Shown here piece by piece: positions 28,640 through 44,346 of a stretch of 64,000 bases of DNA. Position numbers and translations under genes: made by a program. Positions within the stretch are counted from its first letter, which is position 1; the number at the start of each line of letters is the position of its first letter. Location: assembly GCA_963719495.1 (NCBI GenBank), contig CAVRCI010000012.1, forward strand, positions 60,098-124,097, in the 5' to 3' direction. The notes beneath the pieces were generated by a model. That model made no database searches and was not told the origin of the DNA. It saw nothing but the letters and a program-made list of their open reading frames with translations. The stretch is from an uncultured Verrucomicrobiae bacterium (GTDB lineage: Bacteria; Verrucomicrobiota; Verrucomicrobiia; Chthoniobacterales; JAATET01).

Positions 28640-29530
28640 TCACGCCCGCGGATGAAACTGCTTGTGCACCGCCTTCAGCCGCTTCCCATCGACGTGGGTA
28701 TAAATCTGCGTCGTCGCGATGTCCGCGTGCCCCAGCAGTTCCTGAATGATCCGCAGATCCGCCCCGTTGCTCAGCAAATGTGTCGCGAAACTGTGCCGCA
28801 ACAAGTGCGGATACACGTTCGCCTCCAGCCCCGCGAGCGCCGCGTATTGCTTCACCAATTGCCACACGCGCTGGGGCGTCAGCCGCTTCCCGCGCACCGA
28901 CAGAAAAATTTCCGCCCCCGTCTTCGGCGCGACCAGCGTCGGGCGTTCCTTCGTCAGATACCGCCCGATCGCCTCCCGCGCCTGCGACCCCACCGGCACC
29001 ATCCGCGTCTTGTTCCCCTTGCCCGTCACCCGGATCCACCCCGCCTCGGCGTCGAAATTCTCCAGCCGCGCGTTGCACAATTCCGAGATCCGCAACCCCG
29101 ACGCGTAGAGCAGCTCGATGATCGCCCGATTCCGCAGCCCCAGTGGATCCGTCTCGTCCACCGCCTCGATCAGCCGCTCCACGTCCGGCAGATTCAGCGT
29201 GTCCGGCAGATACCGCTCGATCCGCGGGATCCCGATGAACTCCGCCGGATCAATCCGCAAATGCCCGCGCGTCACCAGAAACCGAAAGAAAATCCGGATC
29301 GCCACCGCCTCGACCTTGATCGAAGCCGCCGCCAACCCCGCCCGTTTCCGGTGCGCGAGGTAATCGCTGATCTGACCCGCCTCGACCGCCCCCGGCTCGG
29401 TCACCCGCGCCGTCGACGCCAGCCATTGCGCAAACGTCTCCAGCGACCGCCGGGTGGAAAGTTGGTAATTCGTCGACAACCCGCGTTCGACCGCGAGGAA
29501 GATGATGAATTCCTCAACGAACGACTCCAT
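28640..29530 (-). CDS. xerD: Site-specific tyrosine recombinase XerD
   Basis: LRNRAIIELLYASGLRISEL, GKGNK.R.VP, PHLLRHSFATHLL..GADLR.IQELLGHADI.TTQIYTHV. Confidence 0.9.
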   Translation of the reverse strand: MESFVEEFIIFLAVERGLSTNYQLSTRRSLETFAQWLASTARVTEPGAVEAGQISDYLAHRKRAGLAAASIKVEAVAIRIFFRFLVTRGHLRIDPAEFIGIPRIERYLPDTLNLPDVERLIEAVDETDPLGLRNRAIIELLYASGLRISELCNARLENFDAEAGWIRVTGKGNKTRMVPVGSQAREAIGRYLTKERPTLVAPKTGAEIFLSVRGKRLTPQRVWQLVKQYAALAGLEANVYPHLLRHSFATHLLSNGADLRIIQELLGHADIATTQIYTHVDGKRLKAVHKQFHPRA

Positions 29531-30419
29531 GGCCCGCCGGGTCGAATTTCAAGCCCGTCAGCCGCGTGTAAGCCTCGATGTATTTCTCCGACGTCCGCCG
29601 CGCCACATCGGTCGGCAACTCCGGAGCCGGCGGTGCCTTGTCCCAATCCAGCGTCTCCAGGTAATCGCGCACGAACTGCTTGTCGAAGCTCAGCGGACTC
29701 GTCCCGACCACGTATTCGTCCGCCTGCCAGAACCGCGACGAATCCGGCGTCAGGCACTCGTCGATCAGCACCAACTCGCCGCCCACCATCCCGAATTCAA
29801 ACTTCGTGTCCGCGATGATGATCCCCCGCTGAGCCGCCACCGCCCGTCCGTGCTCGTAAAGATCGATCGAAAAATCCCGCACCCGAATCGCGATCTCGTC
29901 GCCCAGCAGCCCGCGGCATTTGTTCCAGGAAATGTTCTCGTCGTGCCCCGATGTCGCCTTCGTCGAAGGCGTGAAAATCGGCTCCGGCAGTTTCTCCGCC
30001 TGCCGCAAACCCGCCGGCAGCTTGTGCCCGCAGACCGATCCCGTCCGCCGATAATCCGCCCAACCCGACCCCGCCAGGTAACCCCGCACCACGCACTCCA
30101 CCGGCAGCGGCATCGCCTTCTCCACGATCATCGACCGCCCCGCCAGCAGCTCCTCGTGCGGCTTGAGCACCTCCGGCAGCGCCCCCACCGGCAACCCGGC
30201 CAGTTGATTCGGAACAAAATCCAGCCGCTCGAACCAAAACTCCGACAGCTGCGTGAGCAAACTCCCCTTCGAAGGAATCGCCGTCGGCAAAATGCAATCG
30301 AAAGCCGAGATCCGATCCGTAGCCACGATGAGCAACCGATCGCCGAGATCGAACACCTCCCGCACCTTCCCGCTGCGCAATTTCGGAATACCCGGCAGAT
30401 CAACCGTAAGAACGTCCAT
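29514..30419 (-). CDS. purC: SAICAR synthetase
   Basis: SGKVRE, ATDRISAFD, ECVVRGYL.GSG, IADTKFEFG, DE.LTPDSSRFW, SFDKQFVRD. Confidence 0.97.
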   Translation of the reverse strand: MDVLTVDLPGIPKLRSGKVREVFDLGDRLLIVATDRISAFDCILPTAIPSKGSLLTQLSEFWFERLDFVPNQLAGLPVGALPEVLKPHEELLAGRSMIVEKAMPLPVECVVRGYLAGSGWADYRRTGSVCGHKLPAGLRQAEKLPEPIFTPSTKATSGHDENISWNKCRGLLGDEIAIRVRDFSIDLYEHGRAVAAQRGIIIADTKFEFGMVGGELVLIDECLTPDSSRFWQADEYVVGTSPLSFDKQFVRDYLETLDWDKAPPAPELPTDVARRTSEKYIEAYTRLTGLKFDPAGHGVVR

Positions 30420-30468
30420 GTCCGCGCGACGATATTTTCACCACCCAAAAACGCAAATTCCGATTTCC

Positions 30469-30579
30469 AACCGCGAATGGACGCCAATGAACGCGAATAT
30501 TCTGAAAGGACAGCGCATTCGCCCCGCCCCCCTCCTGTCACCCGCATCCATTCGCATCCATTCGCGTCCATTAGCGGTT
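30469..30579. repeat. Gene-less inverted pair of triple decamers (AACCGCGAAT family)
   Basis: aaccgcgaat-ggacgccaat-gaacgcgaat ... attcgcatcc-attcgcgtcc-attagcggtt. Confidence 0.85.
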
Positions 30580-30597
30580 CCCCATGCATTCCTTTAT

Positions 30598-31011
30598 CTA
30601 ATCGCCAAAGCACGCCAATGGACGCGAATGTCCTGAAAGCACCAGACGTTCCCACTCCAGTTTTGCACGCCTGAAGTTCAAGATCACACCGACCGAATGC
30701 CCAGTGATTCGGAGGTAATTCAGCATCTGCCCCCGCTCGTGGTCGGTGATTCGATCAATCACCTTGGTGTCCACGACCAAGCATCCAAAGACGATCAAGT
30801 CAGGAACGTATTCCGAGACCTTCACCCGTTTATAAACCACGTCAAAACGCGGCTGTTGTTGGAGAGGGATCTCGAGCAATTCAAACTCCACCACCAAAGC
30901 ATTCTCGTAAGGCTTCTCATGAAGCCCCGGACCCACCCCGTTCAGCACCTCCATCGCCGCCCCGACGACCCGAAAAACCTCCTCCTTCAGCAGCAACCCA
31001 TTAGCGTTCAT
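30598..31011 (-). CDS. GxxExxY family protein (PD-(D/E)XK nuclease-like)
   Basis: GAAMEV...GPGLHEKPYENAL (GxxExxY), PDLIV....VDTK, Q.LNYL..TG..VG.ILNF. Confidence 0.93.
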   Translation of the reverse strand: MNANGLLLKEEVFRVVGAAMEVLNGVGPGLHEKPYENALVVEFELLEIPLQQQPRFDVVYKRVKVSEYVPDLIVFGCLVVDTKVIDRITDHERGQMLNYLRITGHSVGVILNFRRAKLEWERLVLSGHSRPLACFGD

Positions 31012-31051
31012 TCGCGTCCATTAGCGGTTCAAATCTCACTCACCACAACGA

Positions 31052-32578
31052 ATGATCCTCCTCACCACCCTCAACGCCCGCTACATCCACGCCGCCTTCG
31101 GCCTGCGGTATTTGCGCGCGAACCTCGGTGAGCTGAAGGACCGATGCGAGATCGTCGAATTCGACATCAAGCAGCGCCCCATCGAGATCGTCGAGCGCCT
31201 CCTCGCCGACCAGCCCCGCATCATCGGAATCGGAGTCTACATCTGGAACGTCCGCGAATCGCTCGAAATCGTCTCCCTCCTCAAACGCATCGCCCCCGGG
31301 GTTTGCGTCGTCCTCGGCGGTCCCGAGGTCAGCCACGAGACCGCCGGCCAACCCATCGTCGAGCTCGCCGATCACACCATCACCGGCGAAGCCGATCTCG
31401 CCTTCGCCCAATTCTGCCGCCAATACCTCGCCGGCACCCCGCCCACCGCCAAGGTCATCCACGCCACCCTGCCCACCATCGACGACATCGTCCTCCCCTA
31501 CGACGAATACGACGCCGACGACATCGCCCACCGCGTCCTCTACGTCGAGGCCTCCCGCGGCTGCCCGTTCACCTGCGAATTCTGCCTCTCCTCACTCGAC
31601 GCCCCCGTCCGCCAATTCGCGCTCGAGCCCTTCCTCCGATCCCTCGACGACCTGATGCGGCGCGGCGTCCGCCAATTCAAATTCGTCGACCGCACCTTCA
31701 ACCTCAACCTCAAGATCAGCGCCGCCATCCTGCAATTCTTCCTCGACCGCATCGAACCCGGCCTCTTCGTCCACTTCGAAATGGTCCCCGACCGCCTACC
31801 CGAAGCCCTGCGCGATCTCATCGTCCAATTCCCACCCGGCGCCCTGCAATTCGAGGTCGGCATCCAGACCTTCAACCCCGAAGTCGCCGCCCTCATCAGC
31901 CGTCGGCAAAATTACGACCGCCTCGCCGCGAACCTCACGTTCTTGAAGGAGGAAACCGGCGTCCACGTCCACGCCGACCTCATCTTCGGACTCCCCGGCG
32001 AATCGCTCGAAAGCTTCGGCGAAGGTTTCGACCGCCTCGTCCGCATTGGCCCGCAGGAGATCCAGGTCGGCATGCTCAAACGCCTCCGCGGCACGCCCAT
32101 CATCCGCCACGACGCCGAGTGGGGCATGGTCTACGCCGACCACCCGCCCTACGAGATCCTCCGCACCAAGCTCGTCGACTTTGACGCCATGCAGCGCCTG
32201 CGCCGATTCGCCCGCTTCTGGGATCTCATCGGCAACAGCGGCAACTTCCCGAGCACCCTCGCCGCCCTCTGGGAAACGACTTCCTCCCCGTTCCAGGCCT
32301 TCCTCGCCCTCAGCGATTGGCTCCACGCCACCCTCGGTCGCACCAGCGCCATCCCGCTCCACACCCTTGCCGAGCTTCTCCACCGCCACCTCACCGAAGT
32401 CCAGGCCGTCCCCCCGGCCACCATCGACGCCCACCTCCGCGCCGACTACGCCGCCGCCGGCCGCACCGACCTCCCGAAGTGGCTCCGCCGCGCAGGCGAC
32501 CACGTCCGCTCCACGAGAAGAGCGACCCCCACCGACCTCCCCAAACGCCAGGCCCGCCGCACCCCCACCGCGGCCTGA
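31052..32578 (+). CDS. B12-binding radical SAM protein (DUF4080-type)
   Basis: LNARYIH..FGLRYL, YIWN, GGPEVS, EASRGCPFTCEFCLS (CxxxCxxC). Confidence 0.9.
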   Translation: MILLTTLNARYIHAAFGLRYLRANLGELKDRCEIVEFDIKQRPIEIVERLLADQPRIIGIGVYIWNVRESLEIVSLLKRIAPGVCVVLGGPEVSHETAGQPIVELADHTITGEADLAFAQFCRQYLAGTPPTAKVIHATLPTIDDIVLPYDEYDADDIAHRVLYVEASRGCPFTCEFCLSSLDAPVRQFALEPFLRSLDDLMRRGVRQFKFVDRTFNLNLKISAAILQFFLDRIEPGLFVHFEMVPDRLPEALRDLIVQFPPGALQFEVGIQTFNPEVAALISRRQNYDRLAANLTFLKEETGVHVHADLIFGLPGESLESFGEGFDRLVRIGPQEIQVGMLKRLRGTPIIRHDAEWGMVYADHPPYEILRTKLVDFDAMQRLRRFARFWDLIGNSGNFPSTLAALWETTSSPFQAFLALSDWLHATLGRTSAIPLHTLAELLHRHLTEVQAVPPATIDAHLRADYAAAGRTDLPKWLRRAGDHVRSTRRATPTDLPKRQARRTPTAA

Positions 32579-41211: not shown

Positions 41212-42165
41212 TCAAACGACCGATCCCTCGCAGCTCGACCCCGCCCCGGCCGTGCAGCCGAAACAATGCTCGCCCGTCGCGATCTCCCGCCCTTCCAGTT
41301 GCTCCGGCGTCACGTCCCACAGGCTCAATTTCTCGCCGCCCTCGCGCAGTTGCAGCTTGAGCATCTGATTGAAATCGCAGTCGTAAATCCCGCCCTCCCA
41401 ATCGACGTTGATCGTGTCCCGGCACATCAACCCCTCGACCGTCGCCGGATTGAACGCGTCCACCAGCACCTCGAGATAACTCTCGTATTTCCCGTTGTTT
41501 CGCAGCCACGACGCGAAGCGCGAAACCGGCAGATTCGTGATCGTGTAGAGCGAGTTGAAAACGATCCCGAAGTGCGCGAGCAACTCCCGCTTGTAATCCG
41601 CTTCCATCTCCGCTTGCGGCCCCGGCAGCGCGTCGCCGTTCGGATTGTAGACGAGGTTCAGCGGCAACTTCGGGTCGGTCCCGTAACCGAGCGAGTTCAA
41701 CTTCTGCAACGCCGTGATGCTCGCGTCGAAGACCCCGTCGCCCCGCTGCGCGTTCACGTTATCCGGCGTGTAGCACGGCATCGACGCCACGATCTCGACG
41801 CCCTGATCGGCCAAAAATTCCGCCATCCCGTCGTAACCCGGCTCCAGCAAAATCGTCAGATTGCACCGGTCGATCACCCGCCGCCCCAACCCGCGAATCC
41901 GCTCCACGAAATACTGAAAGTCCGGAATCATCTCGGGCGCGCCCCCCGTGAGATCGACCGTCGCGATGTCCGTCCCCGCCAGCCAATCCACGATTCGGTC
42001 GACCGTCTCCCGCGTCATGATCTCCTTCCGCTTCGGCCCCGCGTTCACGTGGCAATGCGTGCACGTCAGATTGCACAGCTTCCCGACGTTGATCTGCAGG
42101 ATCGCCGCTTTCTCCCGCCTCAGCGGTAGGTCGTGCGTGTCGAGAATTTCGGAAAATCGGTTCAT
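41212..42165 (-). CDS. arsS: ArsS-type radical SAM/Cys-rich protein (arsenosugar biosynthesis, DUF3641)
   Basis: LQINVGKLCNLTCTHCHV.AGP.R.E, DLTGGAPE, ASMPCY, LMCR, YDCDFNQML, HCFGCTAGAGSSC; ATG 42165. Confidence 0.9.
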   Translation of the reverse strand: MNRFSEILDTHDLPLRREKAAILQINVGKLCNLTCTHCHVNAGPKRKEIMTRETVDRIVDWLAGTDIATVDLTGGAPEMIPDFQYFVERIRGLGRRVIDRCNLTILLEPGYDGMAEFLADQGVEIVASMPCYTPDNVNAQRGDGVFDASITALQKLNSLGYGTDPKLPLNLVYNPNGDALPGPQAEMEADYKRELLAHFGIVFNSLYTITNLPVSRFASWLRNNGKYESYLEVLVDAFNPATVEGLMCRDTINVDWEGGIYDCDFNQMLKLQLREGGEKLSLWDVTPEQLEGREIATGEHCFGCTAGAGSSCEGSVV

Positions 42166-43052
42166 TCGGGTTGCAGTCGGTAAGCCGGACGCAGGGCGTA
42201 TTTGTAGAAAGCTCCGCCCAGCAGCCCGCCCAACAGTGGCGCGAGAATGTAAACCGTCAACCAGCCCAGCCCATTCACCGTCCACGGAACGGACCCCCAC
42301 CCCACGAGGCTCGAAAAAACCCGCGGCCCAAAATCCCGCGCCGGATTCATGCACGCCATCGTCAACGGTCCGATCAGCGAAATGAGCAGCGTCACCGTCA
42401 GCCCGATCGCCAGCGGCGTGAGCAACTGCGGCCGCGTGGCGTTGCGCTCGTCGGTCACTCCGAAGATCACCACCAGCAAGATCGCCGTCGCCAGCACCTC
42501 GGCGAAAAACGCCGCGCCGTGCGACATCTTCAGCCGCGCCACTTCATCCAACGCCTGCCCACCCGGGTTGGGAAAAAACTCGCCAAAGATCATCGCCGTC
42601 GCCTCGCTACCCGCCGCGCCGCGCGTGATTCCGTTGGCCGTTTCGTAGACGCTCAGACTCCCTGCAAAGATCACGTAAAGCGCCGCGCTCGCGATCAGCG
42701 CACCCGCGAGCTGCAGCCCAATGTAGGGCAGCACGCGCGACTTCGGAAATTTCCCAAACGCCGCCATCGCCACCGTCACCGCCGGGTTCAGATGCGCACC
42801 GGACAGCGAGCCGGTGAGGTAAATCGCCGTCGCGATCCCGATCCCCCAGACGATCCCCACCTGAAAAATTCCGACCTGCGCACCCAGCAGGACCGCCGCC
42901 GCCACCGACCCGCAACCAAAGAACACGAGAATGAACGTCCCGACCGTTTCGCCGACGACCCAGTCGAGCAGCGGCGTCCGTTTGCCGTCGACCGCGCTCG
43001 AGGTCGCGGCGACGTCGCCAACCAACCGCTCCAATTCTTCCTCTTTCGCCAT
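42162..43052 (-). CDS. glpF: Aquaglyceroporin (MIP family)
   Basis: SGAHLNPAVT and NPARDFGPR (the Asp after NPAR is typical of glycerol facilitators). Confidence 0.88.
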   Translation of the reverse strand: MAKEEELERLVGDVAATSSAVDGKRTPLLDWVVGETVGTFILVFFGCGSVAAAVLLGAQVGIFQVGIVWGIGIATAIYLTGSLSGAHLNPAVTVAMAAFGKFPKSRVLPYIGLQLAGALIASAALYVIFAGSLSVYETANGITRGAAGSEATAMIFGEFFPNPGGQALDEVARLKMSHGAAFFAEVLATAILLVVIFGVTDERNATRPQLLTPLAIGLTVTLLISLIGPLTMACMNPARDFGPRVFSSLVGWGSVPWTVNGLGWLTVYILAPLLGGLLGGAFYKYALRPAYRLQPE

Positions 43053-43060
43053 GATCTAGA

Positions 43061-43184
43061 AACCGCGAATGGACGCGAATGAACGCGAATGATGTTTCAG
43101 GGATACCGAACCGCGGCCACGTCGCACGGTGATCAGGCCAGTCGAAATCACAGAATTAGCGTCCATTCGCGTCCATTCGCGGTT
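43061..43184. repeat. Gene-less inverted pair of triple decamers (AACCGCGAAT family)
   Basis: aaccgcgaat-ggacgcgaat-gaacgcgaat, 64-nt spacer, attagcgtcc-attcgcgtcc-attcgcggtt. Confidence 0.88.
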
Positions 43185-43194
43185 CTCCATAGAC

Positions 43195-44346
43195 CTAACA
43201 GCAATCCCCGCCCACGCACTCGGCCGCCGCCGTCGTGACGTTGTATTCGAGTCCCTTGCTCTCGCGCGGATGCCGCAACGCCGTCCGCGAACAGTCGAAC
43301 GGCTTCGCGTCGGCCAACGCGACTTCCTCGATCGGATCGAGAAAGTCGAAGTAGCTCCCGTAGGGCGCTTTTTTGTAGAGGTTGTAGGTCTTGTCGCACA
43401 CCGCGTAGCGCACGCCGCGCTCCATCCGATGCCCATCGTCGTCCAGCACTTCCTTGAACGGCCCACGGTAGATCACCGCCTGATTCCGCTCGAAACACGG
43501 ACCCTGTTTGCCCTTGAGAGCCTGAATCGTCATCGACCGGAACTCGATGCCCTCCACCGTCTGCCAGGGCTTGGAATCCAATTTGAGAATCTCCACACCA
43601 TAAAACCCAGCCTCCGTGAAAGCCGCCAGAAACCCTTCCTCCGTGAGCGCGCCCGAGATGCAGCCGCTCCACAGCTCGGGATCATCCTGCATCGCCTGCG
43701 GCACCGGCTCGTCCGCGACGATGTCGCTGATGACCGCCCGCCCGCCGCGCCGCAGCACGCGGAAGATCTCCTCGAACATCTGCCGCTTCGCCCGCGGCTC
43801 CACGAGGTTCAGCACACAATTACTCACCACCACGTCCACGCTGTCACTCGCGATCAACGGGTGCGTCACGCGGAGATCCTCGGCCAGAGCGTCCATCGCC
43901 AGATACGTGTCGGCGCACGAGATCGGGTTGGCCTTCAATTCGGCGTCGAGCTTCTCGATGTCGAGCGCGAGATCCTGAATCCGGCCCTTGCGGAACTCGA
44001 CGTTCGCATACCCGATTCGCTCACCGACCACCGGCGCGTTCCGCCGCGCGACCTCCAGCATGTCGTCCGTCATGTCCACGCCGATCACGCGCCCCTCGGG
44101 CCCGACGACCTGCGACGCGATGAAGCAGATCTTCCCCGTGCCGCTGCCGAGATCCAGGACGGTCTCGCCCGCCTCGAGGTATTTGCTCGGATCGCCGCAG
44201 CCGTAGTCCTTTTCGACCACCTCGGCGGGGATGACCTCCAGAAATTTGGGATCGTAATCGACCGGGCAGCACAGCGCCGCCTCGGCGGCTTTGGCTCCAG
44301 CGGCGTAGCGGTCTTTCGTGGCACGTTCGGCGTTCAGCGTCGGCAT
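43195..44346 (-). CDS. arsM: ArsM-like As(III) SAM-dependent methyltransferase
   Basis: LCCPV.Y, YGCGDP, VLDLGSGTG, IGVDMT..ML, SNCVLNL, WSGCISGA, C-terminal CC. Confidence 0.82.
   Translation of the reverse strand: MPTLNAERATKDRYAAGAKAAEAALCCPVDYDPKFLEVIPAEVVEKDYGCGDPSKYLEAGETVLDLGSGTGKICFIASQVVGPEGRVIGVDMTDDMLEVARRNAPVVGERIGYANVEFRKGRIQDLALDIEKLDAELKANPISCADTYLAMDALAEDLRVTHPLIASDSVDVVVSNCVLNLVEPRAKRQMFEEIFRVLRRGGRAVISDIVADEPVPQAMQDDPELWSGCISGALTEEGFLAAFTEAGFYGVEILKLDSKPWQTVEGIEFRSMTIQALKGKQGPCFERNQAVIYRGPFKEVLDDDGHRMERGVRYAVCDKTYNLYKKAPYGSYFDFLDPIEEVALADAKPFDCSRTALRHPRESKGLEYNVTTAAAECVGGDCC

Follow-up and report, generated by a model that had tools for sequence, protein, structure and literature searches.

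A GxxExxY nuclease-like gene boxed by inverted tandem-decamer arms, with gene-less arm pairs elsewhere: a candidate REPIN/RAYT-like system around an unrelated enzyme

A gene of the GxxExxY family, encoding a predicted nuclease, was found boxed by inverted arms of tandem decamers in a 64,000-nucleotide stretch of DNA (the window) from an uncultured Verrucomicrobiae bacterium, whose genome is referred to here as G000. Gene and arms are likely to constitute a selfish repeat-plus-enzyme system, in which the predicted nuclease is likely to bind the arms that box its own gene. The first-pass annotation of the window, made from its letters, had proposed an arrangement like that of RAYT and REPIN with another enzyme class, and this proposal is supported by the pairing of gene and arms, by their co-occurrence across genomes and by polymorphism of the occupied sites. 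By analogy, the best reading of these observations is a REPIN/RAYT-like system built around an unrelated enzyme rather than a member of the RAYT/REPIN group itself.

Results

The cassette in the window

The open reading frame and the two inverted 30-nt arms boxing it were located at the coordinates originally given (Table 1). The earlier observations that one arm supplies the start codon and the other the end of the protein were borne out: the ATG lies within the upstream arm, the protein beginning MNAN, and the downstream arm encodes the terminal HSRPLACFGD plus the first base of the stop codon. Both empty arm pairs were found as claimed, and a scan with the arm pattern that had been put forward gave 8 matches in the window versus 0.03 expected from shuffles. 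A search of sequencing runs listed no RNA set and only DNA contigs of small share, in which neither usable coverage nor a usable joint was seen at the elements. Gene names were assigned by eye from translations, except for those of purC and the radical SAM gene. The second gene-less hairpin is associated with an arsM-like methyltransferase gene followed by a glpF-like aquaglyceroporin gene (42162-44346, by eye), which are likely to be an arsenic-handling pair and are kept in four congeners.

Table 1. Coordinates of the cassette, the gene-less hairpins and the flanking genes in the window
Feature	Position	Strand	Remarks
GxxExxY / PDDEXK_3 gene	30598..31011	-	137 aa; PF13366 and TIGR04256 matches
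Upstream arm, three tandem decamers	31000..31029	-	start codon inside, 31011-31009
Downstream inverted arm, degenerate	30600..30629	+	codes for last 10 residues
Gene-less hairpin adjoining cassette	30469..30579	.	arms 30469-30498 and 30550-30579, 51-nt loop
Gene-less hairpin, arsM-like/glpF-like junction	43061..43184	.	arms 43061-43090 and 43155-43184, 64-nt loop
purC (SAICAR synthetase), flanking host gene outside element	29514..30419	-	
B12-binding radical SAM protein gene, flanking host gene outside element	31052..32578	+	

The downstream arm is degenerate, with 7 of 30 mismatches, and the better partner of the upstream arm is the outermost one, at 30469 (90% complementarity); hence, the region 30469-31029 may be a single unit. 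A CTGAAAG heptamer occurs, as had been noticed, at an equal offset inside both left arms (30502-30508 and 30633-30639), and these are the only 2 of the 52 family-A arms of G000 to have it. The left part of the adjoining hairpin is, in addition, a direct copy of the 3′ end of the cassette (55 nt, 78% identity). Because of this copy and of the restricted occurrence of the heptamer, the adjoining hairpin is likely to be a product of local duplication/deletion. The wider suggestion that gene-less pairs are deletion derivatives held for this pair and for one case at gyrB-gyrA but not for most gene-less loops, which have no gene remnant.

The GxxExxY protein

Membership of the GxxExxY family, with a PD-(D/E)XK fold, was upheld by a match of the window protein to TIGR04256 (114 bits versus a cut-off of 35), by a match to PF13366, PDDEXK_3 (104.7 bits versus a cut-off of 22; E value, 5e-30), and by fold matches of a predicted model. 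The motif residues of the 137-aa protein are G29-x-x-E32-x-x-Y35, D71, D81-x-K83 and Q95-x3-Y99; in the family alignment, K83 and N112 are invariant while E32, D71, Q95 and Y99 are conserved in at least 90%. The E / D / DxK / QxxxY residues are presumably the RecB-type motif set, and the protein, as judged from its sequence and model, has an intact RecB/Cas4-type PD-(D/E)XK site and is a predicted nuclease. As the single-sequence fold (pLDDT of 42) was unusable, an alignment-based model with a pLDDT of 89.9 was utilized instead. Its closest folds were lambda exonuclease, Cas4 and restriction enzymes, mostly DNases, with matches that were individually modest (best E value, 1.3e-3; best Z, 7.5). 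A sequence search for a solved-structure relative found none, the ESM Atlas gave no name for the protein beyond GxxExxY, and no relatives were found in viral contigs with the window protein as the query. GxxExxY genes are under purifying selection (median dN/dS of 0.136 over 125 pairs; 0.10 to 0.13 in three pairs for the window gene). In one publication, PDDEXK_3 is entered as "Unknown" (PMC3424549).

Arms across the host genome

Four GxxExxY genes were detected in G000, each boxed by a different arm type, termed A (the window gene), B, C and D. Profiles seeded on the arms of these four genes, with a threshold of 22 bits, detected 52 A (this profile absorbs some C-like variants), 21 B, 33 C and 108 D sites, a total of 214, versus none in block-shuffled G000. 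The arms are almost wholly intergenic, only 6 of the 214 lying inside long open reading frames versus 60% of random 30-mers. Single arms are common, and 56 gene-less pairs have a gap of <200 nt. The loops of A, B and C pairs measure 8 to 82 nt and are mutually unrelated; no GxxExxY remnants were detected in G000 outside the four genes, gene-less loops included, and no other small cargo gene was seen between arms by eye. Two long-loop hairpins (C2:361929-362177 and C5:50950-51312; loops of 191 and 303 nt) have a different, nested palindromic repeat inside.

The arms of the window consist of tandem direct decamers, and arms across clades consist of two to three tandem 8- to 10-mers. An argument on helical phase from the 10-bp period was dropped, as other clades use periods of 8 to 9 bp. 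The genome also has 12 Y1/RAYT-like matches, of which 11 were examined, all with repeats of other types. Most of these eleven genes (L034-L044) have terminal inverted repeats of their own, several of them GGGGTCAG-starting and TIRYT-like, and some have gene-less pairs nearby.

Arm type and protein clade

In order to extend the comparison beyond G000, 153 GxxExxY loci were gathered in three sets (33 + 80 + 40, the last being a selection of full-length matches); six were dropped (two with no profile hit, three partial and one duplicate) and two more lacked full flanks, leaving 145. An inverted match of at least 20/24 was present around the gene in 121 of these 145 loci, which cannot be treated as independent, 79 being members of the clade of the window protein, versus 8 of 600 long control open reading frames of G000 in a family-blind comparison. 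The carriage of arms by paralogs, on which the first-pass annotation had staked its reading, thus extends to all four genes of G000 and to most of the loci overall. Arm type follows protein clade, with the label switching 20 times over the 128 labelled rows of a quick protein tree, the labels being assigned by our own motif definitions and 19 tree rows staying unlabelled. Such congruence is by itself to be expected from the physical linkage of arms and gene, and both could have been seeded by a single transfer.

The clade of the window protein comprises 79 rows of the tree (support, 99), with A1 arms in 43, A2 arms in 27, C-like arms in 5 and no label in 4. An A-profile arm was detected in all 79 loci, and 50 have the simple arm-gene-arm form. 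At an identity of at least 60% within the clade, the neighbouring genes fall into 44 clusters on the downstream side and 42 on the upstream side, representing unrelated contexts, and the record titles refer to about ten phyla, some of the MAG titles looking mis-assigned. Positions 14, 68, 106 and 115 of the protein separate users of A1 arms from users of A2 arms; their candidacy as specificity determinants was set aside as confounded with clade.

Gene presence and arm abundance in 221 genomes

Exact A and D arm patterns were counted in 221 genomes of the order, which were also searched with the A and D proteins; identity thresholds for the gene were 56% (A) and 54% (D), and genomes with five or more arms were termed arm rich. 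The A gene was detected in 13 of 22 A-arm-rich genomes versus 5 of 199 arm-poor genomes (family-stratified odds ratio, 10.6; p = 7e-6) and the D gene in 18 of 27 D-arm-rich genomes versus 17 of 194 arm-poor genomes (odds ratio, 12; p = 1.4e-6), kin within families being non-independent despite this stratification. No association was observed for the crossed gene and arm pairs of A and D in the same genomes (p = 0.25 and 0.54). One of the genomes, G167, is unpublished, and the results were unchanged without it. Repeat abundance, as had been predicted, tracks presence of the cognate gene, as a statistical association with exceptions.

Arm-rich genomes mostly hold the cognate gene, with 10 of 11 genomes of at least 20 A arms and 13 of 13 of at least 13 D arms doing so; up to 145 exact A arms were counted in one genome other than G000. 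In the family of the host, the A gene and A arms were found in G000 only and in none of the 13 others. With the one A query, the A gene was absent from 9 of the 22 A-arm-rich genomes, including G153, with 25 A arms, and G027, with 15 A arms, no GxxExxY gene found and a genome 93% complete.

Filled, deleted and empty sites in relatives

Presence/absence polymorphism, for which the first-pass annotation had proposed a search, was detected at several sites. At the arsM-glpF junction the hairpin is missing from all four congeners holding the locus. The genes flanking the cassette, purC and the radical SAM gene (29514-32578), are neighbours in G000 only among six genomes of the genus, and the cassette therefore marks a synteny breakpoint; no A arms were found near either gene in the congeners compared. 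Among seven further arm sites of G000, four had no arm in the congeners examined, and at one, three congeners had hairpins whose arm sequences differ. One hairpin of G000 recurs in G002, where the arms are conserved but the loop is unrelated, and one fairly clean empty site had no visible target duplication. A 10-kb island of G000 lies between two hairpin copies (C9:135346-145582), and the joined junction of G001 has just one hairpin (L279); from this arrangement, the site resembles an exchange point bounded by repeats. The same junction has a different repeat in G003 (L280) and G004 (L281), two copies of which flank a 5-kb insert in G004.

The gyrB-gyrA spacer was observed in filled, internally deleted and empty forms. 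Gene plus arms were present in 10 family members (one a partial match), while of five other relatives two were empty, two had a short unrelated repeat and one, G014, had a GxxExxY stub with an internal deletion between its arms (L342), by its sequence an apparent direct intermediate between the filled and gene-less forms. The short repeat in the spacers of G003 (L339) and G004 (L340), at the site where sister species have the GxxExxY cassette, resembles the inverted repeat of a Y1 locus of G000 (L041).

The argF-argG spacer was compared in 30 genomes of another family: A cassettes were present in 3, a right arm alone in 1 and gene-less hairpins of another type (by eye) in 3; the spacer was plain in 12 and had an unrelated insert, in most cases pilin-like by eye, in 9, and no argF was in range in 2. 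A pilin-like gene (by eye) on the opposite strand is inserted at this site in about a third of the 30 genomes (L350-L370). Ten family members have a cassette at gyrB-gyrA, and 20 loci have one at argF-argG, yet one clade occupies 42 to 44 contexts.

Discussion

Proposed explanation

We consider that the arms are probably spread and maintained mainly through the GxxExxY protein, which would bind and cut its cognate DNA and leave repair to the host, a view held with some reserve. The association of gene and arms is well supported, whereas the enzymatic step is inferred in its entirety. The enzyme would act in trans on arm-bounded units at gene junctions, several copies binding to each arm as duplex DNA, at its three tandem motifs. 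Nicking or cutting of the arms, or of the DNA next to them, would trigger host repair or recombination, by which the unit would be copied to another intergenic location with no target duplication. No joining activity is known for a lone PD-(D/E)XK domain. Gene-less units would arise by internal deletion, of which one case was seen, or by copying of arms around unrelated filler, and a minority would later hitch-hike inside IS1380-like MITEs. Spread would be slow, as for REPINs, and a cassette could persist at one junction across a family. More tentatively, and with less than even confidence, the cassettes may represent an unrecognised class of mobile element, characterised by a lone 130-aa PD-(D/E)XK nuclease and no recombinase, a clade-specific, iterated 8- to 10-bp motif, duplication-free copying into junctions and hairpins serving as exchange points for gene islands.

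MITE-borne arms and a cargo role for the gene

Some gene-less hairpins have evidently been moved by a DDE transposase, to judge by their ends and duplications. In G027, A arms lie inside a near-identical 164-bp unit with ends CTAAA...TTTAGG (L237-L241; the C7:20921-21101 region and four others), and a perfect 5-bp duplication was seen by eye around four of five complete copies. Among D pairs of G000 with loops of 65 to 86 nt, 10 of 20 had similar ends and 4 of these had a duplication with 0 to 1 mismatch; such ends were absent from 22 of 23 A/B/C pairs, including both pairs of the window, by a lenient end pattern that was set once the data had been seen. Searches of G000, G027 and G153 detected no IS1380 transposase above threshold; G002 has one, whose ends the scan did not locate. 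A 587-aa transposase near a CCTAAATCC word was considered as the MITE partner and rejected, as the word lies outside the apparent IS4-type end (by eye). A transposase of ∼585 aa (IS4-like by eye) is present in three copies in G000 (C13:506020, C14:30774 and C2:753797) and is apparently a recently active insertion sequence, because the copies are >99% identical.

These MITEs bear on an alternative, which we regard as unlikely, that the gene is cargo serving another function, such as that of a nuclease acting in stress or against phage and controlling its own expression through the arms, and that the hairpins are deletion debris spread by recombination and DDE transposases of the IS1380 type. 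The duplications in G027 and in four of the ten D pairs, the internal deletion in G014, the existence of arm-rich genomes without the gene and the operator-like overlap of the upstream arm with the start codon are all consistent with such a role. It accounts poorly, however, for the near-complete absence of IS1380-like ends from the A/B/C pairs, for short, mutually unrelated loops without gene remnants, for the lack of an above-threshold IS1380 transposase in G000, G027 and G153 and for an arm abundance that tracks the cognate clade and not the other clade.

DNA site or RNA stem

The hairpins of the window fold with z scores of −4.6 to −7.4 and the whole unit with a z score of −5.5. Left and right arms change together, at 60 of 62 pairs for position 5, and the units separate genes running in the same direction, often immediately ahead of a start codon. 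An RNA role for the arms, as a long stem at operon junctions processed by the protein or by RNase III like an intervening sequence, would explain these features but is in our estimation very improbable. Strong folding was found on both strands, as for any inverted repeat; the nearest folds of the protein are mostly those of DNases; and arms often occur singly. Furthermore, the mismatches in 62 arm pairs comprised 44 G-T, 54 A-C and 82 others, giving no excess of G-U on the coding strand, and were concentrated at positions 7, 11, 12, 17, 21, 22 and 27. Because the mismatches sit at fixed motif positions with no G-T excess, we infer that reiterated motifs bound by a protein account for the pattern better than a stem specific to one strand.

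Equally little weight is given to a homing endonuclease that cuts the empty junction allele, the cassette entering by gene conversion and the arms protecting the filled site, since the filled/empty polymorphism at the housekeeping junctions gyrB-gyrA and argF-argG and the duplication-free empty site are in keeping with homing but one clade occupies 42 to 44 unrelated contexts at an identity of at least 60%, the empty spacers share no target sequence evident by eye and the gene-less copies are left unexplained.

Implications of the proposed protein-driven spread

On the preferred reading of binding and cutting by the encoded protein, a very large family of unknown function gains a specific candidate substrate, the DNA site beside each gene, with the arms of other clades as natural specificity variants that can serve as controls. 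If true, the reading explains an abundant class of intergenic repeats, with >200 arms in G000, and implies a separate evolutionary origin of REPIN-like repeat populations, centred on another class of enzyme. Studies of DNA recognition would also gain a resource in a family of 130-aa nucleases whose many motifs have diversified in nature. A full-text literature search, covering mostly titles and the starts of abstracts and few subscription journals, found no published link between GxxExxY genes and arms, and a description elsewhere is possible.

Comparison with known systems

The fold and the E / D / DxK / QxxxY residues are shared with nucleases of the RecB/Cas4/lambda-exonuclease type and with TnsA of Tn7, but the GxxExxY protein is a stand-alone 137-aa domain with a best structural Z of 7.5 and no close solved relative. 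TnsA works with a DDE partner, whereas no DDE partner is linked to the GxxExxY gene here.

The subset of gene-less hairpins in ∼164-bp units resembles IS1380 MITEs in its CCT(A/G)AA-type ends and 5-bp duplications, an assignment that is one of resemblance of ends only; ISEcp1, of the IS1380 family, has an IRL of CCTAGATTCTACGT and 5-bp duplications (PMC6061673). The elements of the window and the gene-bearing cassettes are without such ends. The TIRYT/TIRtron Y1 transposases likewise have an enzyme gene bracketed by terminal inverted repeats but differ in the Y1 enzyme and in repeats starting with GGGG (PMC6006769). Such elements are separate in G000.

The likeness to REPIN/RAYT systems, as set out in two reports, extends to an enzyme gene of low copy number with its cognate repeat beside it, extragenic inverted-repeat doublets of about 100 bp with a variable spacer, several enzyme/repeat types per genome with diverse repeat populations, and apparently long residence at one locus (10.1101/2021.07.10.451892; PMC5581495). 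The enzymes are of different kinds, PD-(D/E)XK (PF13366) for GxxExxY and an HUH/Y1 tyrosine transposase for RAYT, and the GxxExxY gene, unlike that of a RAYT, overlaps its arms. REP repeats are each a short palindrome with a 5′ tag of the GTAG/CGTC type, whereas GxxExxY arms are two to three tandem 8- to 10-mers that are not themselves palindromic. As one GxxExxY clade is found at many sites and in many phyla, its cassettes would be more mobile than a RAYT.
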